Origin: Antedon mediterranea
Lineage: Eukaryota; Animalia; Echinodermata
Assembly: GCF_964355755.1 (NCBI RefSeq)
Contig: NC_092670.1
Location: 24,166,795-24,230,794 of the forward strand
Direction of reading: 5' to 3'
Length of the DNA: 64,000 nt
Shown: positions 11,801-63,590 of the stretch, in pieces
Position numbering within the stretch: position 1 is the first letter of the stretch
Layout of the letters: each line of letters begins with the position of its first letter
The notes under the pieces: generated by a model
Seen by the model: only the letters and a program-made list of their open reading frames with translations
The model's database searches: none
What the model was told of the DNA's origin: nothing
Program-made: the position numbers and the translations under genes

Positions 11801-14800
11801 TAAACTTGTATATTAATGATGCTGCCTTTACCTTAGTAAACTTTTGTGTTTGATTATTCATTATGCGTTTGTTTCTAATCAGTAAGTGCCACTTAATGAA
11901 ACATTGTGCTTAAGTTTACAATTAAGTAGTTTTATTTGTTATTATGTGTTTTAATGTATCAATCAAACACACAGGGAAGTCTGAAATGTCATTAGAAATT
12001 AATTAATGATCGTGTTTTTTATTTTTCCTGTTGAAATATTTTATACAATAAAATTCAACATTTCTTTAAAAGTATCTCTCCTTCTCTCCCCACCCACACC
12101 TCTCTCTCACTCTCCCCCTAATTATTGTACTAGAAATCGTCTGTCTGTCTGTCGGTTGGTCCTATATCCCTACATGTGTAATTTTCGCGTACGTATTAAC
12201 AATATGATTACATACGTTATATGAGTTGACCTGTAGCAATATTCCAAAACTTGTGAGGTGGTTACAAACACATTTCACGTCTCCATCACTCATTATTTCA
12301 GTGCTGCATCCATCTGTGGACCAACTCCTGAAATAGAAACAATGTGAATGAATGAATGCGCTGCTTGCACAGCATTTATTATAAAGTATATACAAATATT
12401 TAAAATTTGTTGTTTGTACACAGACAAAGCTTGAATTATAAAAAAAAAACAAAAAAACAAACATGCTAAAAAAAAAACACATCAAAAGACACAAAAACAT
12501 ACAGGCAAAAATGTGTATACCTTAACTAATGTAAAAACATACTCCTATTTTAAGAAGTGAATAGAGGCCACTATCATAGTTAGCCTGTCATAATTGTAAT
12601 TCTGTATAATAATACTATTTGAAATTACCCTGACATTGAAACAATGTGTACTTTAACCAATGTAATAACAAACTTAAGATTCAGCATTAATCGTTTTCGG
12701 TGAGTTACAATGTAAAAACAAACTTCTATTTTAAGAAGAAGAGGCTACTTATCGGTAGGCCTATCATAGTTAGCCTGTCATAATTGTAATTCTGTATAAC
12801 AATACTATTTAAAATTTCCCTTGAAACAACAGTAGGTCTAATACACTCACTTGTACGTGTTGTTGATGAAAGAACAATTTGCGTTTAATGGTTTGTCTTC
12901 TATATAGTTTGCTAGTGCCTGTAAGTATACAAAAATACAAATTTGAATTAGGTCGATATAATAAAATAAGAACTAACTAACTAACTCACAAGCGCCTTGA
13001 GCATTTTTGTGGATATGTGCCCTATATAAATCTTATTATTATTACTAAATAACTAACTAACTGTAATTGACTATTTAGAATTAAAATAATCTCAAGATGA
13101 ACCTTTTTTTGCGTAAACGATGTACTCTGTATCTCAAATTTGGTACGATTAGAATAAACGCTTATTGACGTGAAATGACCAACCATTTGCACTCCTTCCA
13201 ATTCACTAAAATAAACAAACAAAACATTAGAAAAGGTTTTTAATTTTGAAATATATCATAACTTATATAATTACATTTACGATATGAAGTACACTTGGTA
13301 TTACAATTTGAAAATTAAATGTAACTACAATCTCCTTGTGTTATCTGGATAAACCGACATGTTTACATTTCTCAAAAACTGATAATTAAATTTATCTAAC
13401 ATCCCCGTAATCAAATGGTATGATCGAAAATTTCAACCGCCTATGACCATTGAAAAAAAAAATTTGAGGCAATTTCCCATCAACATTTGCTATAATAGTA
13501 TCGAACTTTAAAAAAATCTAAATAAGAAACTAATGTTTTCTATTATAATAATATTCAATCATATTGACCTTTTGGAAGCATTGATGATTTGCAAGTCAAC
13601 ACGTAGAACAACGGAATGGCAATTTGAACCTGTAATTGGAAATTAAATTTCCTCGTAAAAAACAATGATTACAATTTCGTTAAAATGAACTTGAGAAATG
13701 TTTAAACACAACCAACTCTTTATTTGGGAAACACCGGTGGATGTTAAGGTGACACCCTTAGGTGTATGACTACAGGGTAAGCAGCAGTAAGCAGCGTTCC
13801 GCAAACTTTTGATTTCGTGGCCTAAAATCCGGTTCCCGGGACCAAACCGCGATCCAACTACTCAGCTGGACCAGGACAATACTTAAGAATATGGACCTGT
13901 AGGTAACCGGAAATTGCATTGTAATTTAATTGAAGAGTAAACTTGCGCTGATGATCCACCGAAATTTAGCGCAGTCCGTGTAACGCACACGACGCATGTC
14001 ACCGGATTCGCGTCACACTCTCAAAACATTTTACATTACATCGCTTGGGCGTTGGGTATGTTTACGATATTTTTAGCAAGGTCAAACCTTTACAGTAAAT
14101 TGTAACTCACATGCCTATTGATGAAAATCTAACTACAATGAAGTAGCTTTACGTAAGAAGTAAGTCACATATTTTGTAATACTCTGACGTCAGAGTAGTT
14201 CCCAGTCTCTCATTTCTGAGCCAAAGAATATGCAATTCTCTTTAGGATTATGCAAACATAATAAATATTTCATCAAATCGTTAATATATAGATGACAACT
14301 TACAATTGTTCACGTCGATTTGAAACGCTAATTCATCTCCGACATCAGACCAGTTTCTGTTGTTAAGTGAAAAGACTGCAGTATCTACAAAAAAAGCCCG
14401 ATTCATTATTTCAAAAGTATAAACAGTAAGTTTCAACGTTTTCAGATCAGTTTTTTCCACAAATAAAACGCATCGAAGAAGGCAAATTGATATATAGCAC
14501 TATTTAATAAACAATTGTAATATTTAAAGAATAAAAAAATATGATAAAATAGAAAACACTATGTTATAACATGTATGAATATATAGTCTATCGATGCATT
14601 TTTCAGTACTCTGCTTTTGGATTTATTGATAAAAAATTTATATTTATTGATAACATTGATACAGATACCAAAATCATTTGTATTGTCAGGTGATTTTTGT
14701 CAAATTATGTGAATTAAATGAATAATAAAATTGATAGTTGCTTACTCAAATATTTGTAATTACTTTGGCTCTCAGTCTGACCGGGTTGTAACTCATTTAG

Positions 14801-17800
14801 AAGCGATTGTCCTATGATGTCTGCTGATAATGACAACTGAAACAACTCCTACATAGTAAAATAATATGATTACAGTTTATGAACATTATTTTGTGCCTAA
14901 GCGTTACCTAGATAAATAGACTAATATCATAGACTATTCTTCTTGAGGAGCAAGATTTAACTCGAAAAGTTTAGAAATTCTCTCCATAGAAGTATACGCA
15001 AATGATGCCATTGCATTCAATACGGTATAGCTCTAAATAACACGTACCAGTTTTGGTGTTCCCTTTTCTCCGCTTCCCCTTAAGTCTGCCAAAGACAACA
15101 GGTTTTTCAATGTTTGGTGACCATATTTCCCGCTGCTTTTTGTTCCAATTTCCATTGTTGCATCTGTATGCTTGTTCTCTTCAGTTGTTTTCTAAATCAA
15201 TTAATTTGTTTCACAATAAATTCCAAGTAAACGTAGTTTTATATATTTTGAATGAATTCAAAATAAGATAAAGTATTTTTCAGTTTTTATTGTCTATGAT
15301 TAATTTAAATCATAGTAGGAAAATGTGTTATTAATTGATTCGTTCTGGATATAGGCCTAATCTATATTAAAGTATTTGTTTAATTTTAACTGTTGGTACT
15401 TGTACAAAATTCTAATTAGAATGGAAAACTGTATTATTATCATATGATTCGAATAATACCTGTTAATGAAATTATCAGATCTCTGCTTCATTATTAATAA
15501 TTGTTATATGCTATGTTTTAAGTTTCTTTGTTTATTGATGGTATCCATCTGTCCGTGCTGTATATAGACTTACAAGCACAATCATATTGTACTGAATTAA
15601 TACATTATACACATGTTGGCACACAAGTACGTGATTCAAAACCTGGCCTTATTCCACCGTCAGGACAATTCAATTTTAATATGTGAATCTTTGAAACCAT
15701 TTAATACAGCGTGCTTGGTGGTTTTATGGAACTAAACGTTATTGTATTTAGTAATACACCATTTGGTATTAAGATATTACTATATTTATATTAATATTTA
15801 TAACCATACTCATTAATAATTCATGGCAATTGCCTTCTCATTTATATTCTAATAAATGTCTCTTCACCTACAAAAATAACGTAAAAGATGTATTTAGATG
15901 TATTTTGAAAGTCTCTTTCGTACCTATGGTTATAGATAAACAGCCTTTTCTCCTCGAGGATCAAAATACTCGAAGAGTAGTAAATTCATTGAACACCCCT
16001 CTCTAAAAATTACCGTTTGGTAATTTTCTTAATGTTCAAATGAAATGTAAGTAGCCTTTAAGATTAATCTTATAGTCTCTTGTAAACAACATTTCTTACC
16101 GGTGCTATTTTAGAAAATTCTTCATCATCCAATGACGTAATGTCCATGATTTCCGTCATCACAATTGTTTCAAATGCAATACCAACATCTAATTGAAATG
16201 AGATAATATTGCAATTCTTGCAGTAGTGATTTCCATTTAAATCATTCATTAATTGAATGAGGTTTTGCATTATTTCTTATACAAAAAATTAAAAAAAAAC
16301 TGTCGTTTCCGGTGTTTTGGTTCATCCATCTGTCAATTTACGTTATACCAATCCATCCAACAATGTATTCACATGTTTTGTTCTTTTTTTTATCCATTCT
16401 TTATCGTGTATAATAGTCATTCATGTTCTCTGAAAAACTGTCAACATATTACACGACAACAGAATATACGCTGAAATGTTCTTACGTGCACAATAACCTT
16501 CCTATGAGCTTAAAATAAATTCTACCAGATGCATACCTTCGATGTTGCTTTTCTTTTTACATACTGCGAATCCGTCGTGCCAGTTTGGATTTCTGTGTGT
16601 TTTACTCCTCCACCATTTGCCGCTCTTTGATTCAATCGATACACCTTAGATAATAAAGATAACATTTATGATACCAGTTATTAGTAAATGAAGAATAACT
16701 AGAATATCTCTTTTATTTTATTCATGTTTTTTTTCCAATGAACCTGGTGATTGATTTAAAATATGTATTCTGAGTGTAAGCAGGGAAGAATGAATTTCAT
16801 TCTTGCCTGGTGTAAGTATTCTCACCATATTTCTTGTAAGAATCAAAATGTTTGACCCTAGGTTTCCATGGTGGAGTGAATGTTAAGTTCGTACCATCTA
16901 GCCAAACAAATTTTGCATCAGAAAGCTATGATAAAAAGTTGAGCATTAGTTTCAATGTTAATGACTTTATAGACCTTATGATCACAATAATTTAGCAGGC
17001 ATTTTCTGTCGGTTGGTAAGTTTTTAATACAAATGAACGTGTTATAGTACTTACAGTTACATTTTCCTTGACGGTTTCTATATTATATAAACCAATATAG
17101 CAATGTGTGCTGTTTTGAGAACACAAGTTCTTTACAAAGTTGTTCTCGATTTCATTAAGTATTGATGTCAAATTTGAGTTCATTTTCTCACATTCGTTTG
17201 ATGCATTCTTCCAACTACTATCATTAAATAGGTAGTAACAATGTTTATTGTGGTATTTCCAATTAGGTTCGCATTCTAATCGAATAATAAATAATAACAA
17301 TGGTAAAAAAAAGCTCTTATTCCCCCAGTCTGTTATCTTTACATTTTTTTAAGATGCTAAAATTATGTTTATATTACATCTTTACTAAATGATTAACTGA
17401 ACCTTTCCAGGCTCAATATTCCGTATAATCTTAATCCAAACAGTTATATAATACTTGGATATTTATAAATAATGTAAGACCTTAAAATATTACCTGCAGC
17501 AAATCTGCTTCTTTTTTTACATACTGCGAATCCGTCGTGTCGTTTTGGATTGTTGTATTTTCTACTCATGTGCCAGTTTCCGCTCTCTGATTCAATCGAT
17601 ACACCTGTATAAGAAAAAGTAAGGAATAAGTATAAGGTAATTGTAATGTATTTGTTATCGCATTTGTGATGACTGTAATTTAAAAATCTAGGGAGAACGA
17701 TGAAACTAATTGATGATGTGTATATAAATATTTTACAATAGCATTAGTATTATTTTTACCGTATTCCTTGTAAGAATCAAAACTTGTTTCTGTCAATGGT

Positions 17801-20800
17801 TTAGTGAATGTTAAGTTCGTACCATCTGCCCAAACAAATTCTGCATCAGGAAGCTATGATAAAAAGTTGAGTAAGCATGAGTATTTTAGTGATTTTATAG
17901 ACCTTATGATCACTAGTTTAGCAGTCAAGTGGTTGGTAAGTTTGTAATACAAATGAACATGTTAGGCCTATTAGTACTTACAGTTACATTTTCCTTGACG
18001 GTTTCTATATTATATAAACCAATATAGCAATGTGTGCTGTTTTGAGAACACAAGTTCTTTACAAAGTTGTTTTCGCTTTCATTAAGTATTGATGCCAAAG
18101 TTGAGTTCATTTTCTTACATTCTGTTGATGCATTCTGCCAACTACTGTCATTAAATACGTAGTAACAATGCTCATTGTGGCAACTCCAATCAGCTTCACA
18201 ATCTAAATAGAATGATACTGTCACATTTGTTTTTAACCATAACGACCCACTGCTATGTATAAGCGAATTCGAATAAGCGCCCCGTTTTGAATAAATACCC
18301 CCCACCCCTACCCCCATAGAACATGATAACCCCCCACCCCGGGGATTTATTTCCTCGATTAAACGCCCCGCCACATGCACACAGTGTCAACACATTTCTA
18401 TTTGTAGTAGAACTCATTGATTGACATGATCTACAATTCACCAAACATTTTGAAGTTTTACTTTATTTATCACTTCTCGATATTAATTGTGTTGTATTTT
18501 TTAATATCTATGGGGTATTTATTTGAGTATACATGTTCCCATGTAAAAAAAATAAACACCTACCAGAATAAACACCCCCATACTTAATATTCCATATAAT
18601 CTTAACATATAAAAGCAATTACTCAAATTATTAGAATAAATAAGTTAATAATGTTATTATTATGTACCTACAATAATTTCAGATTTTTCATTTTTCAAAT
18701 TGTATTGTTTAATATCAATAAGTCACAATAAAATAACAATAATAATGGTATTAGTGTATTTTTAGCAGTAATTAATAGGATTAAGGAGAGGCCATCATTT
18801 AGTATTAATACCCTTTTTAATGGGATTAAATTACAGCTCGTCTTTTAATTAACACCATTTTTAGATTATACTTAATTAATTTTAATACTATTAGGTACTA
18901 TGTACCTAAAACGAGTAAAAAAACTCACTATCGGTTGAAATGTGTGCACCTTTTCCCGACATATAATGAGTTTGTTTTTCGTTTAGAAACTGAATTGTGT
19001 TAGGTTATGCATGTTATGGTAAAATGTAAATAAATTGAAGTAGTATTATTCTATTAACAATTTACTCACATATAGCCATAAAAGCTATAGCTGTTAAAAA
19101 TGTATAGTCCCCCCCCCCCCACCCCAAAAAAAGTTGAAAATTAAAGATTTGAAAAAAAAAAGGAATTTCAATGACCCACTTCGCAGGTTTTAATAAAATT
19201 AATAAGTTACGTAGAAAAGAAAAAAAAAACAACATGTTTTTACTTCTAAAAATACAAAGTACACTTAGTCACATATAGCTATAAAAGCTATAGCTGTTAA
19301 AGATGTATTGTCCCCCCAAAAAAGTTGAAAAATAAAGATTAATTAAATAAAAATGTCAATAACCCACTTTGCAGGTGTTAATAAAATTAATAACTTACGT
19401 CAGAAAAGAAAAAAAAAATGTTTTTACTTGTAAAAAGACAAAATAAACGGTTAAATTCAACCAAAAACCCATTGACTTCATTTCATTTACTTCATATACA
19501 TATTTATTCAGTTATTATATATGACAACAACAACTGGGGCCCTCACTAGAATCAATAGCTTGTCTCATGAGGGCCCCTACAATACAAGTAAGCAGAAATA
19601 CATAAAAGAAAAAACATTATAAAACAATAAACAAAATATAAGTCAATCACGAAGGAGAAACAATACAGAGCAGTCAGTTTGACTATGTTTTGCTTTGAAT
19701 TATAGTTTTTGGGTAAATAATTTAGTTTTTCGATCCAATTTGTTGTCAAAGTTAATAACTATTATGTGAAATTAAAATGGCATAAGACTATTCAACAAAA
19801 ATATTTAAAAACTTTTTTCGGGTTGACAATATAATATTCAATATTCCCATTGTTAGATGTGTAGAGGGTAGGGAGAGAGAGTAGTATTACTTTCAATTAA
19901 GTTGATTATAACAAACAATCGTTGGCCGAATTCATCTCACCCTAAAGATTGGTTCCGTGAACGCAACGCAAATACGTAAGCGCATCGGAAGTAATTCGAC
20001 CAATCATAGCGCGATATATCATTATCACTCCCGTCGTGATTGGTCAAATGTCTTGCGTTGCTTCTCCTATAACACATATGCATGCACCGTAAGGGAAGTC
20101 CTTAGATATTTTAAGTATGAAGAGATTGTCATTGACAAAAAAAAATCTATTTTTTAAGGAAACCAAAAAAAAAAGTCAATTTGAAATCTTGTATACTTTT
20201 AGTTCTTTATCATTAGTTTACTAGACATTAACGTTGTAATTGTTGCTGCCGTTGTTTTTTTAACCGGATCCTGATCGGGCCTTGTAAGGAAGACACTGAT
20301 TTTATTCTATGGGGTCACAACGTGCTTCAATCCTATTAGACAATTGTTACGCACGCTTTTTACAACTGAATACATTTAAGTTAAAATTGCTGATTTACTG
20401 AGTTATTGCGAGTATAATCACTGTAGAGTATATTTACTTTAGAACAGATAGGACTAAGACTTACATTTCAAATAACAGTAAAATCGTAGTATGTGCATCA
20501 TTACATTATTTTCAAGGTTGGGACAGTTTAAATTCAGTTTCTCATAAAATTATATACTCTACTGAGAACTTAGCTGGTAATTATGACAATGAATAATTGA
20601 TCCAATTCTTTTGAATATTTTAACAGAATTCATAATCGCGGAAGTACAGTAATATTAATTTGTTTACCCTTGTGTTTGTTGTTGTAGAATGACTGTTATT
20701 GTGATTTTAATATATTAACGCATAATACCTGTTGTTTCTGATTGATCAATTGTGTCTTATGCGGATTCACCCATGACAGAATGATACTGGCAATTATTAT

Positions 20801-24503: not shown

Positions 24504-26387
24504 CTAGCCTCCACGCAGACGGCCCGTCATTTGAATGGTACTCTCATTGGCGATGCCATACGATTGTAAATTTCGTTGGTCTTCGAGATTTTTGCCGCCA
24601 AATACCAACAACTGTTGACTTGGAGAAATTCCAGTTTTTATCTCGATTTTCTTTTTCAATTCACGCACGAGGGTAGATCTCTTCATGCCCGAAAATGTAA
24701 GTGTATTTCCGTTGGTGGTCTTGACGAATACTTGAAAGTTGTCGATTGTGATGTCCTGGCAGTCTCTGTTGAGCAAGTAAAGTAAATTTAAACGTAACTT
24801 ACTAGTATTTAAATAGAAAAATGGTAGTGCATTGGTAATTTGTATCTAATTCATGAAATAGTAGGCATCCGCATAAGCTTTTTCCGTTCTCATACTTTAA
24901 AAAACATTCACATTTTATTTCAAATCCAATTTATTGATGTCATCATACGTCGATATAGGCTTACAGCAATTTATTTCTCGGGTGGTGGTCAACCACTAAA
25001 CAATTCTTCGAAAGGCCAAAGGTTAAGTTAACTATTTGCAATATTCGAACCTAATATTATCAATGACCTCGTTGGCCTCTTAATTGTTGTCGCCATTATA
25101 ATCATCGTTATCATTATCATCGTCATCATCATATTCATCATTATCATCATCATCGTCATCGTCATCATCATCATCGTCGTCGTCTTCGTCGTCATCAGCA
25201 TCATCATCATCATCGTCGTCGTCATAATCGAATCATTTTCATCATTGTCATAAATAATGATTGATCATTACTCACCGTCCTTGTAAGAGAATTTCTATGA
25301 TCTTTTGATCTGATTGGACGATTTCTCTCAACCATCTCAACACGTTTCTGAGTGATTCTTGAGTAAACTGCTCAAAAAGATTCTCTGATGGATTGTGGAA
25401 GTTTGGAAGATCGTATTTCTCCATGTATTTGATGAGCGTCCGCAGCAGGTCCTTAAAGCGATCATGAAGATAATCTTGGTGCCATTGTGTAACGCTTGTA
25501 TCATCGTTAAGATACAGCATGCATGTCTTTAGATGGTATGACGACAACATTCCAAGTTGAGAAGCACCTCTCTTTACTCGAATCGTCTTCAAGATCTTCA
25601 GACAAGCTCTGCGGCATTCATTCTGCCAATCCATATCACTTATGATTATCTGTTCCTTCTGTGTGTAACTCCTACGCCACAGCTGATCGTAGATGTTCTG
25701 TCCAGGTGCCTGTCGAGAGTTTGGACTTTCTGCTTTTGGGTGTCTCTTTGCTACGTACCTGGTGCCATCGAGTTCGATGCACGGCACAATATCAATCGAT
25801 AGTTGTTTTCTGCTGTCATATGTAACATTTATTGTTAAGGCTGGTCCATTAACACTTTGTCTAGCAGTAATCCCAAACAATTCTTGGTTTATCTGGTTCA
25901 CTACTCCCTGAACCAAGGATTGCATCTGTCGAAATGTGGATATCGGGTTGATATAGCCATTAACAACGCAGTCGTTCAGATGTGTGGCACCATTTCTAAC
26001 TTTCTTTATGAAATAATAGCCTGACGAGTGAGTATTGCATCCCTCGGCATTTTCTTCTGCTTTCCACAGATCAGTGCCCATCTTTATAGGGACCAGAAGG
26101 TCAAATTCATCCTCTCGTATCACCTTCAAACCCTCATAAGAGCTTCCTTGGTGGTAAATTGTTCCAAACACGAAGTTAGATGTCTTGAAATTATCTTCCA
26201 GGATCAGTTTGATCTTCTCAACGACAGTCTTAGCGCGCTTTTGTTCAACAACAGGAATGCTCACATGTTCGTGGAAGTATTTTCTCAAAGCGTTAAGAAG
26301 TGGATCTCGGCTGCTTTCGAGCTGTCCAATTTGATTTTCTTCTTCTCCATCGGTATCCCGTTTACGAACATGTTGTTTATTCGCCAT
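24504..26387 (-). CDS. cGAS-like receptor (cGLR, Mab-21 NTase) fused to a C-terminal ubiquitin-like domain ending RLRGG; 2 coding exons (26387-25276, 24765-24504), 457 aa
   Basis: cGAS/Mab-21 motifs HQGSSYEGLKVIREDEFDLLVP, SIDIVP, WRRSY..KE, LKILK, LSSYHLKT, LPNF..SENLF. The ORF's TGA is part of the donor CG|GTGAGT (phase 2); the acceptor tttacttgctcaacAG|A GAC TGC restores the Ubl frame. Start context is accATGg with an in-frame TAA just upstream; an acceptor at 26405 implies a non-coding first exon. Confidence 0.9.
25095..25250. repeat. Degenerate (CAT/CGT)n trinucleotide microsatellite in the cGLR-Ubl intron
   Basis: Directly visible; accounts for the spurious Met/Thr-rich ORF 25028..25225. 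Confidence 0.9.
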
Positions 26388-48216: not shown

Positions 48217-48288
48217 GCCCCAGTGGTCTAATGGTTAGGGCAACTGCATATCAAGCCGACGGTCCGAGTTCGAGCCTCGGTTGGGGCG
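48217..48288 (+). tRNA. tRNA-like unit, copy 1 (tRNA-derived repeat or pseudogene)
   Basis: A box TGGTCTAATGG, B box GTTCGAGCC, acceptor stem GCCCCAG/TTGGGGC, T run downstream; anticodon stem imperfect. Confidence 0.5.
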
Positions 48289-48482: not shown

Positions 48483-48554
48483 GCCCCAGTGGTCTAACGG
48501 TTAGGACATCTGCATATCAAGCAGGCGGTCCGAGTTCGAGTCTCGGTTGGGGCG
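48483..48554 (+). tRNA. tRNA-like unit, copy 2, intact cloverleaf with ATC at the anticodon position
   Basis: Acceptor GCCCCAG/TTGGGGC, D stem GTCT/GGAC, anticodon stem TCTGC/GCAGG with loop ATATCAA, T stem CCGAG/CTCGG; part of a ~266-bp tandem duplication (about 48150-48655). Confidence 0.55.
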
Positions 48555-49781: not shown

Positions 49782-52700
49782 TCACAAAGATTCAATTTTT
49801 TCAAATAGGTTTTTGTTCATGGACATATAGTTTAGTATGTAATCCCGTACAACTACATGGTAGTTCTGGACACCAAAGAGAATATAACTCAAAGCCCTAA
49901 AAAGACAGTTGCCGTCCCCTCTCATATTAACAACTTTAGTAGGCCTGGCTGCCTTGTCCATTTCACATTTTAAGTGAGTTTTGTGAAAATTTTTGACATT
50001 GATACCAAATGGTGCTGCCTTTTCAAGCTGCCAATTGGCATCGACAGGAAAGAATAACTTTCTTGAAGTTTTCGTGTTGAGGTATACCACATCACTATCA
50101 GATACAGGCCTACTGTTGTCATGGTCATCATCCGGTGCGACATTATCATTGTCTAATGTAGGTATGTTATCGTGATTATCCAGTGTGATATCATCGTTCT
50201 TGGATGTAGGTATGTTAATGTGATCATCCGGTGTGATATCATAATTCTTGGATGTAGGTCTGTTATCGTTATCATCAACATTCTTGGATGTAGGTATGTT
50301 AATAATGTGATCATCCGGTGTGATATCACCATTCTTGGATGTAGGTATGTTATCATGGTGCGTTACTTCAGGTGGGATGTCTGGCGTTCGCTTTCGTTTC
50401 TTTGGAGGGAGATGCTTATCATTGGTATTACATTTCTGTTTAGTGCTTGATGATGGACAGTTCAAAGAGGTTGTTTTATCGGACTTGTAATGTCTGATCT
50501 TGTTTCCGTTAACAATAGCCCTTCTTCCTTTTAGTCGATATGTATTGTGAGTGAGGACTTTTTCTATAATATATGGACCAGTCCATCGAGCATTAAGTTT
50601 GCCTCCCTTTCTTGACAAATTTCTGGAATTCTGCAAGAGCACTTGATCTCCTGCATAGTACGTGTTGCTTTTAACACCAGCATCATGATAATGTTTTTGC
50701 TTTTTCTGTGCTTTTTTGATATTTTCTGATGCCTTTCTCCTTGAATCTTTGAGTTTCAAAAAAGCGTCCACTCTTATTTTTAAAGGAACAGTTCCGGATA
50801 TGTCATCTTTATTAGACGAAACGATGGGAATACGTAATTCTACAGGCAACACAGCCTTTCTACCGTAAACTAATGAGAATGGGTCACATTTCGTAGACTT
50901 GTGCTCGGATGTTCTGTAGGCAAACAACACGTATGGGAGTTGTATATCCCAGTCATTTTGGTCTGCGTTGGTCAACGTCATAAGCATTGTGCAAAGTGTT
51001 CTGTTAAAGCGCTCCGTTTGCCCGCCTGTTTGAGGATGGTATGGTGAGGCAACTCTGTGGTCTACCCCAATCAGCTTACAGAAGCTGTCATTCAGCTCAT
51101 TACAAAACTCTCTACCCTGGTCTGTAATCAATATAGAAGGTGTTCCATGTCTGCAGACAAAATCAATAAAAGATCTCAGCACTGTTTTAGCAGATTTATC
51201 TGGAATTGCATCAGCTTCCACCCATTTGGTAAGGTACTCCGTAAATACAAGTAAGTACCGATTACCTGAAACACAGCAAATAATAATATAATAAGCCGTA
51301 ATAATAGTAGTGTCAAAATGTCATGATGAGATGTACAACACCCGAACTGTACGAATGAAATAACAATAATAATAACAATATTAATATCAATAAATATAAT
51401 AAGAACAAGAACAATAATAATATCGTGGATTTACATAGCGCCTAATGTTGTAAAACCTCTATGCGCTGAACAGTATTACCCCAGTCATGGTTTGGATCAA
51501 ATTAAAACAGGCAGAAATAAAGATTATTACAGTATAGCCATAATCGATGTAAATCCGGTGACAATAATAAGAGCATCTGATTCTTGGTAAATCTAGTTTT
51601 TGTTGACAGTGTAAAAAAGAGAACTGTCATAATTTTAGTTTAGTTAACAATTTCAAGAAACCTCACAGAAATTGCGCTTGTGCCTTTACAATAATAAATT
51701 TAAGTTCAGCCCTATTACAATAAAGGCCGAACAGAACTAATTATTAACTGTAATTTTAGGCCCTGAAGAATGAATTACAAAGTTTTCTGAACGTATTTCA
51801 TTCATGTCTTCTTGCTTTTTACTTTTACGTTTTGATTTAGCTTTTTTATCCAGTCACAGCATTTTTGTTTTTCAGTAATTTGTCATGAGATACCTTACCA
51901 TTTTCTGTCTTTACCAAAGGCCCAACAATATCCATACCGATCTGTCTGAAAGCAGTATCTGTTACGGGTATAGGTTGAAGTGGCACTTTTGCTTTTTTTA
52001 AAACTTCTTTCCGTTGGCACTGATCACAGGCGGCTATAAAATTACGAACACCATCAAATGACCCCTTCCAATAATACCTTTCGCGTATCTTTTTCCAACT
52101 GTTAAAAAAAAAAAAAAATGTGTTTATTGTATTGATGATATTCAATCTCTTTGTAGGTTTACTATTGACCTTAAAACTGTATTATGGATTCTTTAAATAT
52201 TTTAATTTTATTTTGTTTTTTAATATTATTTATTATTTATTACCGCAGTTCACATCACCATTCTCATCAATGCATTATAATAACATTACAGTTTGGCGTT
52301 CCATATATTTTAACTTTTCGTTTAAGGCAAGCACTGGGCACAACTGATTAATTAACTTTTAATATTTATCTATGTTTCTAGTTTTTTTATTTGACAATGA
52401 TAAATGAATATTGAAAAGAGAAAAGATACCTTCTATGAAAAATGTCCATCAGTCCGTGATGATTCCGTGTCACATTGTACCAGGGAGATTTACATCTCCC
52501 TGATTGTACCGTGTTTACATTCTAAATACCCCCATATAAACTTCAAATTGAGTGCAGCCTCCCATACAAAATAACTACGCCCTCAATCTGGTAATAATTC
52601 ACTCAGGCAATAAAAAACTAACTTGAAAAGTATAAATAATTAATTGTCCTACTAGAATTATTGTGTACGCTTGGTGAATGTGCGACAGAGTAGATATAAA

Positions 52701-54992
52701 AATCGCCACTTTTTTTTTAAAATAAACAAGGGGAAATATATACGTTTTAACACTACATACTGGTTAAATTTATTTATTTTTAAAATGTAGAGGACACCCT
52801 ATTAAGGAAACCGGGTACTTTTTAGTGAGCCACAATGGTAGATTGCGAGAGGTAGTGGTCCTTTAAAATAGGTGGTCACTTACGAAAGATGTGGTCGATA
52901 AGGGAGGTGGTCGCTTACGATATGTGATCGATTATGAGAAGCGGTCTCCTAACAGAGAGGTCGTTTATTAGAAGTGGTCACTTAAGAGAGGTGATTTATA
53001 CAAGAGTTGGTATATTATGAGAAGCGGTCCATTTAGAGATATGGTGGTCTTCTAAAAGAGATCATCACTTACGAGAGGCGGTCGAAAATATAAAGCGGTC
53101 GCTTACGAGAGTTGTGGTTGTTAAGAGAGGTGGTCGCTTACTACGAGAGGTGGTCGATTATGAGAAGCGGTCCATAATGAGAGGATGTGATCACTTACAA
53201 TAGTTGGTCGATTATGGGAAGCGATCCCTTAACAGAGACGATGGCCGTTTAATAGAGGTGGTCACCCAAAAAAGTTGTCGTTACGAGAGAGGAAGTCGAT
53301 TATGAGAAACGGTCCCTTAAAAGAGTTGGTTGCTTACGATGTGTGGTCGTTTTAGAAAGTTGGTCGGTTACGAGACGTGGATAGATGGATAGCTAAGTAA
53401 ACAGATGCATTTGCACATGATTTAGACATTTAGGTTTGTAAAATATATATTTTCTACATTAGCTGGCGATAGTCCTACATTAGCTGGGATGCAATTTTCG
53501 TTCCTACATTCGTTGTTGATCGTTCTACATGGTGTTAATTTTTTTCATTACATAAGCTGCAGGTGGTTTTACTCCATTACCGGGGGATTGGAAACTAGTT
53601 TTGTTATTGAAAATGCGTTTTTTTTAAAGAAGTATTCCCTAAAAAAAAATGTAATAATCCACTTTAAAGTTACATAATAAAAGTCTTCTTCCTTACATTT
53701 TTTTTGTCAAATTGTGTTTTCTTTCATAAGTATACATTTTAAACGAACGAAAGTTAATACTGATATGGCTTTTTGCATTATGAATGAGCAACTAATATTG
53801 AACATATTTATTATACCAAGACCTGAATAAGTTTTCATTCGGGAAGTATTTGTATCACTATTTAAAACTAAGATATCTCTCATGAGGGATATCTCTATAT
53901 TACTTACTTACCAAGATATTTAGAATGGAAGATTCTTGTCCCATTCGGAATATCACAAGTGGATTTTTTTCTGTGTTAGTTATGCAGTGGGCACGTGTAG
54001 AGTACCGTATATGAACTGTTATAAAACTAAAACATTACTATTATAGATAGAGCTAGTTGTACTGTATTCTTCTTGGTTTTTCGAGGTGTAATAAGCCTAC
54101 AAAAAAATATCTATTAACATAGATATTTCTTTTAAAAAGTAAGACATCTTAGTTTTCAATTGAAATAATCTATCTTTATTAAAAGAGATATCTTAATTTT
54201 GAACTAAAGATATATGCGTTGTGTAGCACTGTGTAAATTATATAATAATAATCTGTCAAATTATTGAAACAGTGCTCATATTCGGAACATTTTTGATTAA
54301 TTATTGAATGCCAATATATGTTTTGTATTTTTTACATGTGATATTTTATGTTCAACTTCAATATATTTATACAATTAATTGCGATAATATATTGAGTAGA
54401 AATTATTATCGACTTAACATATTTTTCATTCATGGAGGTATAAAAATATGTTTGAATCTATATATAAAATACTAACTTCATAATGTACACGGTCATTATA
54501 CATTTTTCAATTGATAAGTATTAGTTATTATTCATTTAATTCATTCATTTAATCATTTGTTTCGAATTCTGTGGTCCACAGAAAGTAAAATTACGTATAA
54601 AATCATTTAAAAACAATGCTGTACTAATTACTAATACTCATCTCAGGATGGCATTCCACCTGGCCAAACATATAAACAGTTTTAAAGTCACCCAGAAACT
54701 TATCGAAGCTTAAATATTATTTAATTGACAAACTTTAAACTTACGTTTTGTTGACACCCAAGTGACCACCATGTGCCTGCTTATGGATACTGTTTAACAC
54801 TTCGTTTTTTTCTTTCGGTAACAATACACGCAACAATCTACCAGAATGTTGTTTGTAATACAAGATATCACGAAGAATTGTAAAGTTCTTGGCTTTCCGT
54901 CGCAAACTTCGTTTTAATATTTCAGAATAATTTACAGGATAAACGTTGTTTTGTAGATAGTTTCTCAAGGCATCAAACTCATGATCGGCCAT
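49782..54992 (-). CDS. Ginger1 transposase (Gypsy-like DDE integrase, H2C2 Zn finger, GPY motif, partial OTU); 3 exons, 643 aa
   Basis: Exons 54992-54745 (phase 2), 52098-51899 (phase 1) and 51265-49782 join in frame (1932 nt). H..HGGHLG / CDQC, GMDIVGP, ITDQGREF, YHPQTGGQTERFN, WTGPYII, OTU MRGDGNCLFRALS. Confidence 0.9.
50105..50358 (-). repeat. Coding minisatellite in the integrase-OTU linker
   Basis: About 5 imperfect repeats of PTSKNxDITPDDHxNI. Confidence 0.85.
52830..53600 (+). repeat. gagaggtggtcg-rich repeat, homologous to the foldback at 56480-57510
   Basis: Tandem degenerate gagaggtggtcgcttac units ending ttacgagacgtggatagatggatagcta, which recurs at about 57298; reverse complement at about 56690-56780. 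Confidence 0.7.
53860..54212. mobile_element. Degraded member of the AGATATCT TIR family in Ginger intron 1
   Basis: ctatttaaaactaagatatctct motifs; about 53921-53956 resembles the reverse complement of about 6859-6894. Confidence 0.55.
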
Positions 54993-56479
54993 AATGATAA
55001 TAAGTAAAAATAGAAAGAAGGCAGATTGTAACGAACAACACCGTGATTGGAACTTTGCAAGCAAAGTGAATGATTTTTTAAATGTAGGAGGTTTTGAACA
55101 AACATTGAGCCAATCAGCTTCTTGCTACATTTGTTTTAACCAATTGCCGATTAGAAGAAAGAGCAAACAGTTTTGTCAGGTGTAGGCCTATAATTTAAAC
55201 TTTGTGCCTTAAGTGGATGTCACGAACTCCTTTTACGTATGTTTCCGAGCGGTTGAAAATACTTTAGAAACTCCCTTGTGACATAAAAGTATACACACCA
55301 AATTCACAAAGTTGTAAAATAACTCAAAAACAAATCTTTAATTTCAATCAACTTCAACTTTCAACAACCCAGTAAGCATTTTAAACAACAGCTTCACAAT
55401 AACTTTTACAATCTAATATCCAACCTCTAATATCCAACAACATGACAATAGTTTTACATCCCTTTATATACAAGATGTTCCTATCCTTCTATATCATTCT
55501 TTATACTTCTTATTCTATTTGATTACAGTTTCTATTAATAGCATACTGGAATGTTCCTGATTGTTATTATATTAATTATACATGATGTCTTAAATGTAAA
55601 CATCTTATTCTAGAATGTTCATGGTTAGGGAATGGTAATTTATTACAGTGGCAAGTACACAAAAAAATGAGAGAAAAAAACTATTGGAGGGAAATGCCAT
55701 TTATTAAATTAAATTTCGAAGATACTCTTATTGGTAAACGCTTCAGTCGTTCTATTACACAATAAATAGCACATTCAGATAGGAGTATAAAATATAATCA
55801 TATAGTTATTCTTTATTACATATTATACGTTCATCTCAAATTATATTATAATATTAATTGAAATTGTATTTAAATTTGTATCCGTTTTTGTCGACAGGAC
55901 CACAATGCAAAACAAGTATATTTCTACTTGATTGTGTATAATCCTGTATAAATATGTTGTTAAATAAATAAAATAATATTAAATAGTAATCTACGTAAAA
56001 TAATATTATAGTACATAAGTTCGTATTAAAACCGTTCAGGCTATGAGGCAACCCCCGCTCCCTGTATATTAAATAGAAACATTTTTTATAATACTTATAC
56101 TAGAATCATATACTAATTTATTTAGTTATTTTTTAAAATAAGAGAATTAAATTACGTAACATACTGTGGTATATAATTCTTGTAATGAAATCATATTCAT
56201 GGTAAGCGTAATCTTAATTTGAGATATGGCAAGTTCGCACCCCTTCTCCTGACAAATAACAGATGACAGTTAACACGACTACCGGTAATTAATATCTCCC
56301 GAGAGCCGCTGTTTTGAGGTTGACCTGACAATTGTGGCCTGAGTTATGGGACATTACCCTTGCTGGACATCTGGTAAAAATAAATACTGATTATGCTGCC
56401 ACTTTAGTACACAAAACAATAAATAAAAAAAAATAAAAAAACACAACTTGTGGCATTTCCTTTACACTAGTCCCTGTTC

Positions 56480-57510: not shown

Positions 57511-59639
57511 CTATGTTTATATGTCCATATAAAACAAAAATACAACCGCGATTTTTTAAACTCAGCTGCATGTACAGACATTGTGGCAAAGACGTTTTAA
57601 ACGCTTCATTTCAATATAAGCCATTATTCTATGAATTTGATGTATAACGGTATTGGACTGTTTGTATTGGGAACGAAATACCCTAATATTCGAAAAAAAC
57701 AAAAAACCGAAATACCCTTGAGTGAACGAATAATTATGATGCGCAATTAAGGTGTTTATTTTGCCATATAAAATATAAAAAACAAATATTTTTTGGTAAT
57801 ATGCATCAACAATATTTTTCAAATGTATTTTAGATAAATAAATAAATAATGTAAAGTCTATAGAAACAAAGCAAATATTGTGACTAACCAATTCAATGTT
57901 TTATTAAATAAAAACAAAAATCAGGCATCTGTGAAAAAAATATAATGAAAAAGAACTGACTTTAACAATGACGAACTTACTTGTTTAAAGAACTTTTGTT
58001 ATCAGTTGATATTATTAAATTAGTAGCAGTATTATGAATATTACAAAATAATATTTTGAGAACTGAAAAATATTTTGAGGGAACGAATATATTTAGGGAG
58101 AACAAAATAAGATTTCAAGAACTGAATAATATAAAAAACGAATTACTACTTCGAGACAAGGAATGATGATGATGATGATGATGATGATCGAGAGAACGAA
58201 ATAATTTCGAGGGAAATTATTTCGTTCTCTCGCGAAGTAGTAATTCGAATTTCGAATGAAATAATATTTCGAGATAACGAAATAGGTAGGCCCTATGCCT
58301 ATATGATTTAGTGATATTCATTCCCTCGAAATAATAATACAGTAGGCTATATATTTTTCAAGTTGTCGATTTACTTCAAATTGACAACAGGTTGTATATA
58401 CTCAATCAAAAACAAACAATTTAATTTGATTAGACTATATGTCTCCAGATATAATAATAGTAATATTTATTTCAATCCACTTGATATTTTGCGATTCAAG
58501 TTGGTATTCTAAGGAATTATAATTACCCTAACGGGAGTTGGTGAACGTCCAGTGCCCTAGTTTTTACGGGGTTAATATGATGTCGATGTCTCGATGGTCC
58601 TACTTTTTTATCGATGAAAGCTGCCCGGGTGGTTGCGGCCATTTTCAACAGCTAGTATTACAATATTCAATGCTGAAAATTGTCCAGTGGACACTTTCAA
58701 ACACCGGACAGATTTAAATCTTACACCGGCGGACAATTTCACATTAGATGAATGAAGTTTACAGTAGTACAGTACTGGGACATGCAACAGTGACACATGC
58801 GTGATATGGATGGGCCTGTTATGGTCGCTTGACATGGAACAGCGCAGCAGTTTCTTGTTGTTAGACATGAACCGTACGAGAATCGGGTGGTCAATGGGCA
58901 TTTCGTGTGATGAAATTAGGTGGTATCTCTCTCATCTAACTGGTACCGATATTTTCCCCTTTCGGAGTCTCCCACGTCCATACGAGGGGAGGGGGGTGGG
59001 GTTACCCGGCAGACACCGATTTTAATTGACTTTAGGTAACCCTCTACATCATCATATAGTTAGATATTGGCACCTAGTTCATCTAACCAAATGTCTCTGG
59101 GCTGCCGATCTATAGACTCAGTATTGGAAGACTATGGTAGCTTACATATTCGTTGCCAACAAGTCCTTCTCAGGTATCAATTCGTTTGATGTCCTTGGAA
59201 CAATTTATAAGTAAAATAAAGTCATACCGATTTACTAATATAGATATTTAATTGTCATTGTTCATACCAATCTATTATTATAAATTTACGTATAAGGACA
59301 AAATTCGGTAAATCGCGCGTTACTTCTAGAATTTTTACTCGATGGTGTATATAGTTGATTCATACTTTCGGTACTGATTTTAACCACCCGATGTAACCCT
59401 GTTTACTAACTACATTGAATTATATAATTAGTAATTGACAATTAAAACGAATTTAGGTTCAACGATTTGCCCCAAATAGGGGTGTTTTCCGATCGTGGTA
59501 TACACTGTCTAATGGGTGTCCATCTTTAAAAATACCCGCACACAATAATACGAGGATGATTCACATTTACCTATCTCCTTCTACAATAATAATAATATTC
59601 TATAATAATAAGATAGTAATATAGTGATTCATTACAAAT

Positions 59640-60500
59640 AATTATTGATAACAAATGGTATGATGACAACCACCTCTCTATAAATACTGAAAAAACAAAG
59701 GTTATGTTACTAAGACACAATCATACAGCTGACAGTAATGATTTAAATATACAAATTGGAACCAGTAAATTAGAACAAGTTGATAGTATAAGGTATCTGG
59801 GAGTCGTAATCGATGAAATGTTAACTTGGAAACAAAATACTCAATGTATTAGTAAAAATATTGGATATAAAATAACAATGCTAGGTAAAATAAGTAGTTT
59901 AAGTAAACCGTTACTAGAAACTCTATATATAAGTAAAATTCAGCCTTGTAGTGATTATGCTATAACAGTCTGGGGAAATACGACAGAGTTAAACAAAAAT
60001 ATTTTAAAGCGACATCAAAAAAGAGCTGCTCGAATTGTAACTAACAACTTCGATTATATTAACGTAAGGGGTGACAACATCATCCAGAACCTACCGTGGC
60101 AAACTCTTGAAGAGAAACGAGATTTCTCCCTAGCATGTCTAATGTATAAATGTGTTTACGGCCTTGCACCAATTAGATTAGTAAATGAAATATTCACACC
60201 CACTTAACACGAGGAGGAAAATTTGAATGTAACAATACCTAAATACACCCTTAGTAAAATGAATTCGTCCTTTAAAGTTGCAGGCGCAAAAACATGGAAC
60301 AGTTTACCAATTAATATTAAATCGGCACCAACAATTACGTCCTAGGCTAGATACAAATCTCATTTCTTTCATAAAAACTGTATTATATTTAATTAAGTTT
60401 CTCTTTTGTATATTTTGATTAAGACAGGACCACAATGTAAAACAGATACACTGTTATCTGATTGTTTTATCCTGTATAAATATATTATTTATTTATTATT
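59640..60500 (+). mobile_element. 5'-truncated CR1/L2-group LINE (RT C-terminal region plus 3' UTR)
   Basis: WYDDNHLSINTEKTKVML, RYLGVVIDEMLTW, DYAITVWG, QKRAARIV, LMYKCVYGLAP, GAKTWNSLP; AT-rich tail. The 3' motif acaggaccacaatg also occurs at about 55894. Confidence 0.88.
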
Positions 60501-61286: not shown

Positions 61287-61802
61287 CTTATTATTGACAG
61301 TTGCTTCTCAATGTTTGTATTAATTAATAATTACACAATAAACGTCGTAGTGGTGTATAAATGTACTTTACTATTTCAATCGACTATGACAATGACAGTT
61401 TCAACAAAGTATTAAATCGCAAATGTTTGACTCTGTTTGCTGGTATATTATTTATAAAACATGAAAACAAATATTTCGTTACTGAGTGGATAAAAAATAT
61501 AAATTGTTCCCCTTTGCACCCATCCTCTTCCCCATTCCTCAACCCTAATGTTACATACAAAAAAACAATTTGGTTATGTACCCAAAAATGTTCATTCCTA
61601 GGTCATATATGGGCAAATCACATTTTTTTGTCACATAAAGATTGATAGTGTAGACAGAGCTTGATATATACAATATTTCACCGAACATTATTGCTACCGT
61701 TTGTCCTTTTCGTGACGTTATTCCGTGTAGGAAAAGGCTTATATTTTATAGGCTGTAGCCTAATGTAGGCCTGTAACCTTTTAGGATTGATTTCGATCTG
61801 TA

Positions 61803-63417
61803 TTATCGACCTCCTCTTAATCTTGGTAGGAGATAAATTGTACTCTGGTCTTTAATGTTGTAATAGCCCAACGTGTTGCCATCTTCTAGTTGTCTACTCT
61901 CAAATGTTAGTCTCTGTTGATCCACTGGAATACGCTCCCTTCCTGCGATTTCATGTTTCAGTTGTTTTACTGTGGTTGATTTGCGCATGTTTTGATAAAC
62001 GATAGATTTTCCATCATGGTTTTTAACAAAAATGTCAAATGTATCGGAGGTACGTGTTGCATAACTAAAGGAAAAAATATATATAATGTAGAAATATTAA
62101 TTATGTAAATATAATAATATAATTCGCAAAGAATAACAAAATGATAATCTCAAGTTTTTATGTAATTTGTCAGCGTTTACTTAGCAAAATAATAAGTTTG
62201 ACACCGCAAATCTCTCCGGAAACCAACCCGATAATTTATAAAGCGCTATCTGCAGTGCATTAAAGACCTCAAGCTAAAAATGGAATGTTTGATAGTCTAA
62301 ACCAGTAAACTGTGAACAGATAAACAAAATGATTATCATCGCACCAAACTTCGCGATACTGGATTATTAAACTATATTTCGAATAGGAAAAACAATCAAA
62401 TTAGCATATAATACAGGTACTATATATGCAAGCAATCCAACATTGTGCAATAAGCATCCAATGATGTTTCCATGGTATTTGGGGGAAAATAAATTCCACT
62501 TATTACTGGCTTACATTTTATTCAGTAGGAAACTGATAATTCATCATCACGCATAGCTCTTTTAAGCCATCCCAGAATGTTGTCCAGTGAGGCAGGCTTA
62601 TACCGATCAAGAAGATTCACTGATTCGCAGAAGAAGTTGGGCACGTTGCGTTTTTCAAGGAAAAGCATCAGAGTCTGAACCAAATCTTTGAATCTATCTG
62701 CTAAACTGTCTTGGTGCCACGATAGGTCAGGACCGTCCTTGTTTAAATGCAGCATACAGTCTTAAGGTGATATGACGACAGCATTCCTAGTTGTGAAGAT
62801 CCTGCCTTCTTCTGAACTGTCTTCAGAATTTTCAGGGTATCACTACGGCATTCATTTATTTTGTCAATGCTGTTGAATATACTTTTTTCTCTATCCGAGA
62901 AACTCTCCCTCCATAATTGATCGTATTCAGAAGTATTTAAATGACGAGGACCTTTAGCCACAAAGTGCCTACCATCAATAGTTAAGCTTGGAACTATATC
63001 AATAGACATTACTTCCACCGTTGGATATTAAATACATGGCTGGACCACCAGATTCCTTAGGGGTTATCGTCATGCCTAGGTCATTCTCATCGCCATGAAC
63101 TATTTTGTCTACGGTTGACTGCATGTTCTGACGAACTGTATCAGGGTTCAATCGCCCGGCTTTTATAAAATCAGCCAATGTAGATTCAATCGAATGTGAC
63201 GTTTTCTCAATCAAATAGTAGCCATCTAATCTTCCTTCTGTGATTCTCCAATTATTAGTAGACAGTTTCAAAGGAACCAGTAAATCAAATTCGTCTGCCT
63301 TAATCACCTTCAAACCTTCGTATGTACTTCCTTGATGAAAGATCTGCTTAAAGTTAAATGATGAAGAGTGATGGGAGATCTCGAACTTTTTTATATTTTT
63401 TCAACGGCTTCTTTTGC
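61803..63417 (-). pseudogene. Second cGLR-Ubl paralog, pseudogenised (NTase exon about 63417-62515; Ubl exon 62064-61803 ending RLRGGR)
   Basis: FHQGSTYEGLKVIKADEFDLLVP, SIDIVP, YDQLWRES and LGMLSSYHLKT align with copy 1. In-frame TAA after AVEKI; frameshifts near 63380, 63030, 62757 and 62538; SINE-like insertion at the 5' side. Donor AT|GTAAGC at 62514 and acceptor cctttAG|T at 62065 are both phase 2. Confidence 0.88.
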
Positions 63418-63590
63418 GAGGCGAGTCATATGGCCAAGCGGTTAAGGCAGGGGCGCCGTTTACCGTACCTAAAGAGCCAACAACAACATCGGCAAGGGTT
63501 CGAGGCCGACTCGCTCCTAGTTCTGGTGGTGGAACAAGTCTTCTCGGATAAGGACTATAAACCGTAGGTCCAGTGTACACAGTTATAAGT
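63418..63590 (+). mobile_element. tRNA-derived SINE (possible Deu/Nin-like core) interrupting cGLR copy 2
   Basis: A box TGGCCAAGCGG, B box GGTTCGAGGCC, then gtcttctcggataaggactataaaccgtaggtcc; cGLR homology stops abruptly at 63417. Confidence 0.65.

Follow-up and report, generated by a model that had tools for sequence, protein, structure and literature searches.

Bacteria are known to conjugate cGAS-family enzymes, and in birds OASL, a nucleotidyltransferase with a ubiquitin-like (Ubl) tail, is known to conjugate. Chicken OASL, as described in PMC8764230, is a nucleotidyltransferase with Ubls ending in LRLRGG that conjugates to itself, a modification named "OASLylation", whereas in the bacterial CBASS type II system the cGAS enzyme itself is reported to be conjugated by Cap2/Cap3 through its terminal glycine, after which more cGAMP is made (PMC10097602). 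Among animals, the cGLR list of Li et al. includes orthologs, from the crinoid Anneissia, of the proteins considered here (PMC9980059); Anneissia has 47 cGLR and 3 STING genes (PMC9980059, supplement), and Table S2 of the same study contains six rows with a ubiquitin domain, all six from Anneissia and all assigned automatically, among about 3,000 cGLRs from 583 species. The screen table of Li et al. contains no match to an Anneissia protein, and the words "ubiquitin" and "Ubl" do not occur in the preprint main text of that study (PMC9980059) or in PMC10732462. Among openly licensed papers, we found none on the combination of a cGLR with a Ubl. An automatic annotation of the domain pair has therefore already been published, and the LRGG tail or a possible conjugation is undiscussed in the openly licensed papers searched.

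The window analyzed here, a stretch of 64,000 nucleotides of Antedon mediterranea (NC_092670.1, positions 24,166,795 to 24,230,794), carries on its minus strand two genes of the same plan, copy 1 and copy 2, which lie 35 kb apart (Table 1); no further copies were found in the 64-kb window. The spliced product of copy 1 is identical to P0001, an A. mediterranea protein of 457 residues with Mab-21 and ubiquitin domains, and an in-frame stop is present four codons upstream of its ATG. The nearest intact relative of copy 2 is P0011, an A. mediterranea protein of 415 residues that ends in RLRGGR. For copy 2, an earlier note on this DNA had proposed a cGLR exon, a phase-2 intron and a Ubl exon, and this plan, with the splice junction given in Table 1, was confirmed. 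The same note held that the introns of the two copies match in phase and position; both are indeed phase 2, with the donor at an equal place relative to exon 1, but exon 2 of the copy-2 type begins one codon shorter. An alignment of the two intron sequences scored 21, no better than shuffled sequence (mean 22), and the intron of copy 1 contains a long GAT-type triplet repeat (window 25100-25240). At the two donors (25275 and 62514) an unspliced reading stops at once (CGG TGA and ATG TAA, respectively), because any GTRA donor in phase 2 has this effect; intron retention at either would yield the enzyme without the Ubl.

Table 1. Features of the two cGLR-Ubl genes and their surroundings (window coordinates)
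Feature	Position	Strand	Description
Copy 1 Ubl exon	24504..24765	-	Ends MTGRLRGG-stop
Copy 1 intron	24766..25275	-	Phase-2 GT-AG, 510 nt
Copy 1 exon 1	25276..26387	-	Intact cGLR/MiD51-like domain, triad E94 D96 D199, no N-terminal membrane anchor
Merged tract, broken and intact versions	61763..62016	.	X1 contig, 0 differences
Copy 2 tail codons R-L-R-G-G-R-stop	61803..61823	-	Final codons GGT CGA TAA
Copy 2 Ubl exon	61803..62064	-	77-residue ubiquitin-like domain, frame open, end LLPRLRGGR-stop
Copy 2 intron	62065..62514	-	Phase-2 GT-AG, 450 nt, AT/GTAAGC ... CCTTTAG/T
Copy 2 exon 1 remnant	62515..63417	-	Mab-21/cGLR nucleotidyltransferase, 5'-truncated, four frame breaks
tRNA-derived SINE	63419..63590	+	A box 63431, B box 63497, paired stem; 3' limit approximate

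Elsewhere in the window, exons on the minus strand at 3907-18386 read as an adhesion GPCR, with what we take to be C-type lectin repeats, a GPS motif and a seven-helix end. Fragments at 49782-55124 (minus strand) presumably derive from a Gypsy-type integrase, and one at 59620-60207 (plus strand) presumably from the end of a LINE reverse transcriptase. Two calls of tRNA-Asp with the unusual anticodon ATC, at 48217-48288 and 48483-48554 (plus strand), are probably the heads of a repeat element.

Copy 2 had been taken for a functional paralog with a single 1-nt frameshift, and neither part of this description survives. When compared with P0011, exon 1 has four frame breaks, near positions 63395, 63010, 62759 and 62538, and its longest open stretch is of 133 codons; moreover, homology ends at 63417, with the loss of the first 28 or so codons, the start codon among them. 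Directly adjoining this break point, and in the orientation opposite to the gene, is an element that we take to be a SINE; contig depth is about 1e5 on this element against about 24 on the copy 2 gene. An Rfam scan of the element gave no match at the gathering score; SNORA9 matched at 21 bits, far below its gathering score of 85, and was set aside as chance. A search of the rest of the window for the missing 5' piece of copy 2 did not recover it, the best local score being 27 where the 95th percentile of shuffled sequence is 30, and a pattern search for it returned eight matches at two to three mismatches, none of which near the gene. In run X6, as read by hand from the loose end of a contig, an intact gene runs on beyond the 63417 point with P0011-like codons.

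An assembly error behind the breaks was ruled out, as contigs from runs X1 and X2 show no differences to the window across the lesions: in X2, three contigs match over 62256-62830, 62901-63222 and 63202-63440, and in X1 the match reaches 63451. X1 and X2 represent one sample, which may be the source of the window, and they test the accuracy of the sequence rather than the frequency of the lesions. Runs X6, X9 and X10 have only the intact type at the exon 1 sites listed, in contigs that show presence and not absence. With four breaks, no start codon and a SINE junction, all matched by the X1 and X2 contigs, copy 2 is a pseudogene or a null haplotype, and alone it adds little beyond presence/absence variation and exon homogenization (see below). 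We hold with high confidence the joint claim that copy 2 is dead and that the gene family to which it belongs is real.

Exactly two versions of the gene are present in X2, at depths of about 298 and 293, with 58 differences in 546 bases of exon 1 and intron. At 61770-61930 the two merge into a single contig with no differences and a depth of 512, and the depth of the merged tract is about 1.5-1.7 times that of either version in the X1 and X2 contigs. Over some 250 bases, the Ubl exon of copy 2 is thus the same as its live counterpart, whereas exon 1 is about 10% different. At a divergence of 10.6%, the probability of finding no difference in even 100 free sites is about 1e-5, and we therefore infer that the Ubl exon was recently exchanged between the broken and the live version. 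Since the clean tail of copy 2 was borrowed by this exchange, it cannot be counted as separate evidence for selection on copy 2. At the protein level, exon 1 of copy 2 is identical to P0011 at 232 of 302 aligned residues and retains the E-x-D...D catalytic codons; the Ubl exon is identical at 82 of 86 residues. The two versions of equal depth point toward a heterozygous locus, the 77% protein identity of exon 1 toward a sister paralog, and the choice between an allele and a paralog of the P0011 locus is nearly evenly balanced.

A 455-base contig from run X10 spans the Ubl exon with two differences and extends past 62066, where its next 28 letters are the end of an intact-type exon 1, i.e., a spliced junction; this support consists of one contig from one run, in which the shorter side of the junction covers about 30 letters, and the RNA status of the run is a guess. 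The same exon 1-Ubl junction is contained in the public gene models of two species. At window positions 61825-61826, a G to C change was seen at both bases in runs X5 and X8, which converts the Pro that precedes RLRGG to Gly, the residue found in the Anneissia proteins and in copy 1; in X6 and X9 the change was seen at 61825.

The Ubls match PF00240 (E 1e-19 to 1e-21), with a pLDDT of 78-92 over the Ubl of the predicted model, consistent with a beta-grasp fold, and those of crinoids are 43-50% identical to ubiquitin. The Ubls of copy 1 and copy 2 had been described as quite diverged, and as sharing a one-residue insertion relative to ubiquitin. They are 41% identical to each other, and both have 77 residues against 76 in ubiquitin, the extra residue being located after strand 2, in line with that description. 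The insertion is found in all eight crinoid Ubls that end in LRGG and in P0162 (see below); 2 of 26 other Ubl units also insert in the same loop, and the insertion is a fair, if not a unique, marker of the family. LRGG itself is invariant in the eight crinoid Ubls that end in it and makes up four of the 22 invariant columns among 77, an arrangement with a chance of about 0.005 if the invariant columns were randomly placed.

According to PMC12355090, the E1 enzyme UBA1 contacts Arg42, Arg72, Arg74 and the Ile44 patch of ubiquitin, with Arg72 as its specificity filter, and ISG15 and FAT10 have polar patches. In the seven distinct Ubls, Arg74 is kept in all and Arg72 in six, P0005 and P0006 having a Gly at position 72, and Arg42 is kept in three, so that some of the contacts with UBA1 are missing. 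None of the seven retains Ile44 or Val70, and one retains Leu8; His68 and Leu71 have also drifted. The proposal that RLRGG was under selection can thus be upheld at the level of the family, where LRGG is invariant while the Ile44 patch is eroded, but not for copy 2's own tail, whose exon has been homogenized with that of the live gene. Nor is a GG-R end of the precursor type, also proposed, a trait of the family: six of the seven intact fusions stop at GG, and P0011, together with copy 2, adds an Arg. This Arg is thus a derived one-codon change and not an ancestral precursor tail. Its codon, CGA, is one base from TGA and is followed by TAA; the simplest origin for it would be a stop-loss, halted by the next codon. 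The likeness to ubiquitin-family precursors, one residue after GG, is confined here to the P0011/copy-2 line. The extra residue resembles that of four polyubiquitins (P0053, P0066, P0099 and P0168), which end in GG plus one residue, making a trimming of the P0011 Arg plausible.

Like the fusions, avian and reptile OASL is a nucleotidyltransferase-fold protein with a C-terminal Ubl that ends in LRGG, as far as described in PMC8764230. The four top Atlas feature matches of P0011 are OASL clusters (0.86; a lead only), and the copy 2 Ubl scores 78 bits against the chicken OASL Ubl (7sbi) and about 66 bits against a single ubiquitin. The fusions differ, however, in being Mab-21/cGLR proteins without PF10421 (OAS1_C), in having one Ubl instead of two and in their echinoderm host. 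In addition, no OASL is among the best 60 matches of the copy 1 Ubl, and a shared Ubl ancestry is thus only possible. In OASL of reptiles and birds and in tandem-Ubl proteins of fish (P0045, P0047, P0044, 7sbi), it is the last Ubl that the crinoid Ubls resemble; the fish proteins are, as we assume, ISG15, and P0045 and copy 1 have YGIANESTIQMT in common. The tree gives weak support to a descent of the crinoid Ubl from the ISG15/OASL line (90/87, with outgroups picked by shared words), and such descent may be considered as a lead only.

Among the 193 proteins collected, 28 match the enzyme profile, and eight of those, the seven fusions and P0162, also match the Ubl profile. The enzyme domain of copy 1 has 19 relatives, 15 of which are from crinoids; seven of the 15 carry a PF00240 Ubl, against none of the four others, and eight have no Ubl in their gene models, some of which may be incomplete. 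Six further, distant proteins were found by profile search, none with a Ubl. As far as searched, the Mab-21-plus-Ubl family is specific to crinoids; in a profile search of 1.84 billion proteins this covers the best 150 of 34,006 matches, which are dominated by polyubiquitins, so that a distant non-crinoid member could be missed.

In the enzyme tree, from which the near-duplicates P0006 and P0010 were omitted (both were included in another analysis), copy 2 groups with P0011 (100/98), inside a branch with P0004, P0005 and P0007 of Anneissia (100/100), and copy 1 groups with P0002 and P0003, also of Anneissia (98/99). The seven intact fusions come from two crinoid families. Because both genera are represented in both branches, the branches split before the divergence of Antedonidae and Comatulidae, in agreement with the view of the earlier note that this is an old gene family and not a chance adjacency. 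A single clade of fused enzymes was rejected (AU p 5e-36), and the enzyme tree requires either one gain and three losses of the Ubl or a minimum of three separate events, be they gains or transfers of the exon. A single gain is favored, given the shared insertion, the intron site shared by the two genes of the window and the one, weak, Ubl group. That group was obtained in a tree from which 11 of 34 units were dropped as redundant or poor, and its support (77/89) argues against independent origins of the Ubls, but weakly so.

With regard to decayed tails among the paralogs, there is one such relative, P0162, and the eight crinoid Ubls mentioned above keep LRGG. P0162 (553 residues) has Mab-21 and Ubl domains with the same insertion, no GG, and hydrophobic repeats behind the Ubl. 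A tail-anchored form of the protein or an error in the gene model may explain these features; lacking GG, P0162 speaks against the tail being needed by every member. Other members vary in other ways. P0005 and P0006, named isoforms X2 and X3 in Anneissia, have different enzyme exons and identical Ubls (77/77), and XP_033108723.1 carries the start of the same Ubl; either several enzyme exons are spliced to one common Ubl exon or the exon has been homogenized, as in copy 2. P0004 has a Ser/Thr-rich tail ending in CSVN in the place of the Ubl, and in P0052 a hydrophobic stretch separates two enzyme domains arranged in tandem.

P0001 and P0011 match PF03281 and PF20266, the nucleotidyltransferase core and the helical bundle, above cut-off, and PF21297 was also matched. 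The motifs h[QT]GS, [DE]h[DE]h and h[DE]h are found in all seven intact fusions and in copy 2 when read through with X; the triad of P0011, which corresponds to that of P0001 (E94 D96 D199), is E70 D72 D166. With the Mab-21 and Mab-21_C domains, the QGS loop and the acidic triad, the fusions resemble described cGLRs. They differ from these in being nearest to MiD51, and copy 2 in having no open frame; the spacing to the third acid is of 91-102 residues in the fusions, against 50-90 in Li et al., whose list nevertheless includes the Anneissia orthologs (PMC9980059).

The nearest solved structure by sequence is that of MiD51 (E 4e-36), followed by cGLR1 (3e-19) and cGAS (about 1e-9). A Foldseek search with the predicted model, which is of poor confidence at residues 242-375, gave MiD51 (E 3e-15) and cGAS (3e-11), and MiD51 was also the top fold match in the Atlas search (TM 0.70). 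MiD49 and MiD51 carry an N-terminal membrane anchor. Unlike these closest solved structures, the fusions have a C-terminal Ubl, no N-terminal anchor and the catalytic acids, the active site reading EDEFD in the fusions and ADHIQ (H-x-Q) in MiD51. The best hydropathy window is 0.2-0.9 in the seven fusions, against 3.4 in P0013; within the anchor-bearing branch, a strong hydrophobic stretch is present in one of five unfused proteins, P0013, and that of P0009 is moderate (1.4).

A terminal GG with nothing behind it provides no site for cleavage from a fusion partner, leaving activation by an E1 or recognition by a diglycine reader. With chicken OASL and bacterial cGAS as precedents, we lean slightly toward conjugation as the function of the LRGG tail, and give about even chances to the fuller proposition that the intact members are conjugatable cGLRs, covalently attached through the Ubl to other proteins or to each other. 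The N-terminal domain would make a cyclic dinucleotide after sensing a ligand, and a ubiquitin-pathway E1, UBA1 or UBA6, would activate the last glycine, Arg72 being accommodated by the pocket of the E1; echinoderms have UBA6. As in ISG15 and FAT10, the altered surface may prevent the Ubl from being taken for ubiquitin. Attachment, dependent on E1, to targets or to the protein itself would then position or prime what is probably an immune signaling enzyme, and could stand in for the membrane anchor of MiD51 and of some unfused crinoid relatives, a step that is weak, since one of five unfused proteins has a strong hydrophobic stretch. In the P0011/copy-2 line, where a stop-loss would have added the Arg, a deubiquitinase would have to trim it, like the cap residue of polyubiquitin. 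Copy 2 would make no protein, and its Ubl exon would have stayed free of lesions through exchange with the live gene, by recombination or conversion. P0162 and the eight of 15 crinoid relatives that are unfused indicate that some parts of the family can do without the tail. The bacterial CBASS enzyme is similar in that a cGAS-family protein could be linked to targets by its C-terminal glycine, with an increase in signaling, but there the tail is the enzyme's own and is activated by a dedicated E1-E2 encoded in the operon, whereas the crinoid tail belongs to a true beta-grasp domain; the relation is an analogy and not homology.

The alternative that survives best is that the Ubl acts non-covalently, its free GG docking into a zinc finger of the HDAC6 or USP5 type, or the Ubl binding a receptor in the way that human OASL binds RIG-I. 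It would account equally well for an invariant terminal LRGG, zinc-finger ubiquitin-binding domains are described as binding free diglycine ends (PMC3268394, 10.1101/2023.02.21.525740), and several E1 contact residues are lost. Yet chicken OASL, the closest architectural analogue, conjugates with the same tail, and the mammalian OASL that binds RIG-I is described as having no LRLRGG end (PMC8764230). Arg72, moreover, is kept in six of seven Ubls; with docking, the extra Arg of P0011 would turn the interaction off until trimmed, and on balance we regard this alternative as rather unlikely.

It is improbable that the Ubl is a built-in, FAT10-like degradation or turnover tag that keeps a dangerous signaling enzyme scarce. 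Although the Ubl is fused to the enzyme and Lys6 and Lys27 are largely kept, proteasome receptors read the hydrophobic patch of ubiquitin, which is eroded in all seven, Lys48 is replaced by Arg in the copy-2 branch, and a degron in cis needs no terminal GG. FAT10, which is also described as being without the Ile44 patch (PMC12355090), speaks for such a tag. Similarly, there is little to recommend the idea that the fusions are mitochondrial fission adaptors, recruiting Drp1 as MiD51 does, with the Ubl in place of the anchor as the tie to organelle proteins: MiD51 does rank first by sequence, fold and Atlas search (TM 0.70), with PF21297 matching, but the fusions have an unbroken acidic triad at the place of the H-x-Q of MiD51, and tandem expansion, frequent loss and the 47 cGLRs of Anneissia resemble the turnover of immune genes. 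Finally, that copy 2 itself works, its breaks being sequence errors and GG-R a selected precursor tail, is hardly credible: in its favor, nothing disrupts the splice sites, the triad codons or the Ubl frame, and P0011 has GG-R in an intact gene, but the start codon is missing, contigs of two runs reproduce the SINE junction and all four breaks without a difference, and six of seven intact fusions have no extra residue.

Conjugation through the Ubl of the intact members can be approached with the crinoid set itself, which provides constructs ending in GG (P0001), capped by GG-R (P0011), without a tail (P0162) and unfused (the remaining relatives), and thus a probe for conjugation control of an animal cGLR, along with catalytically intact relatives of MiD51. 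More speculatively, and at odds that we consider doubtful, feather stars may have independently evolved a self-tagging, active MiD51-related cGLR, in which the anchor was traded for a conjugatable Ubl and the enzyme is primed by being attached to its targets. If true, this would be an animal counterpart of the conjugation of bacterial cGAS and an ISG15/OASL-like modifier outside the vertebrates, with diverse sensor exons placed on a homogenized, and in Anneissia perhaps shared, Ubl exon.
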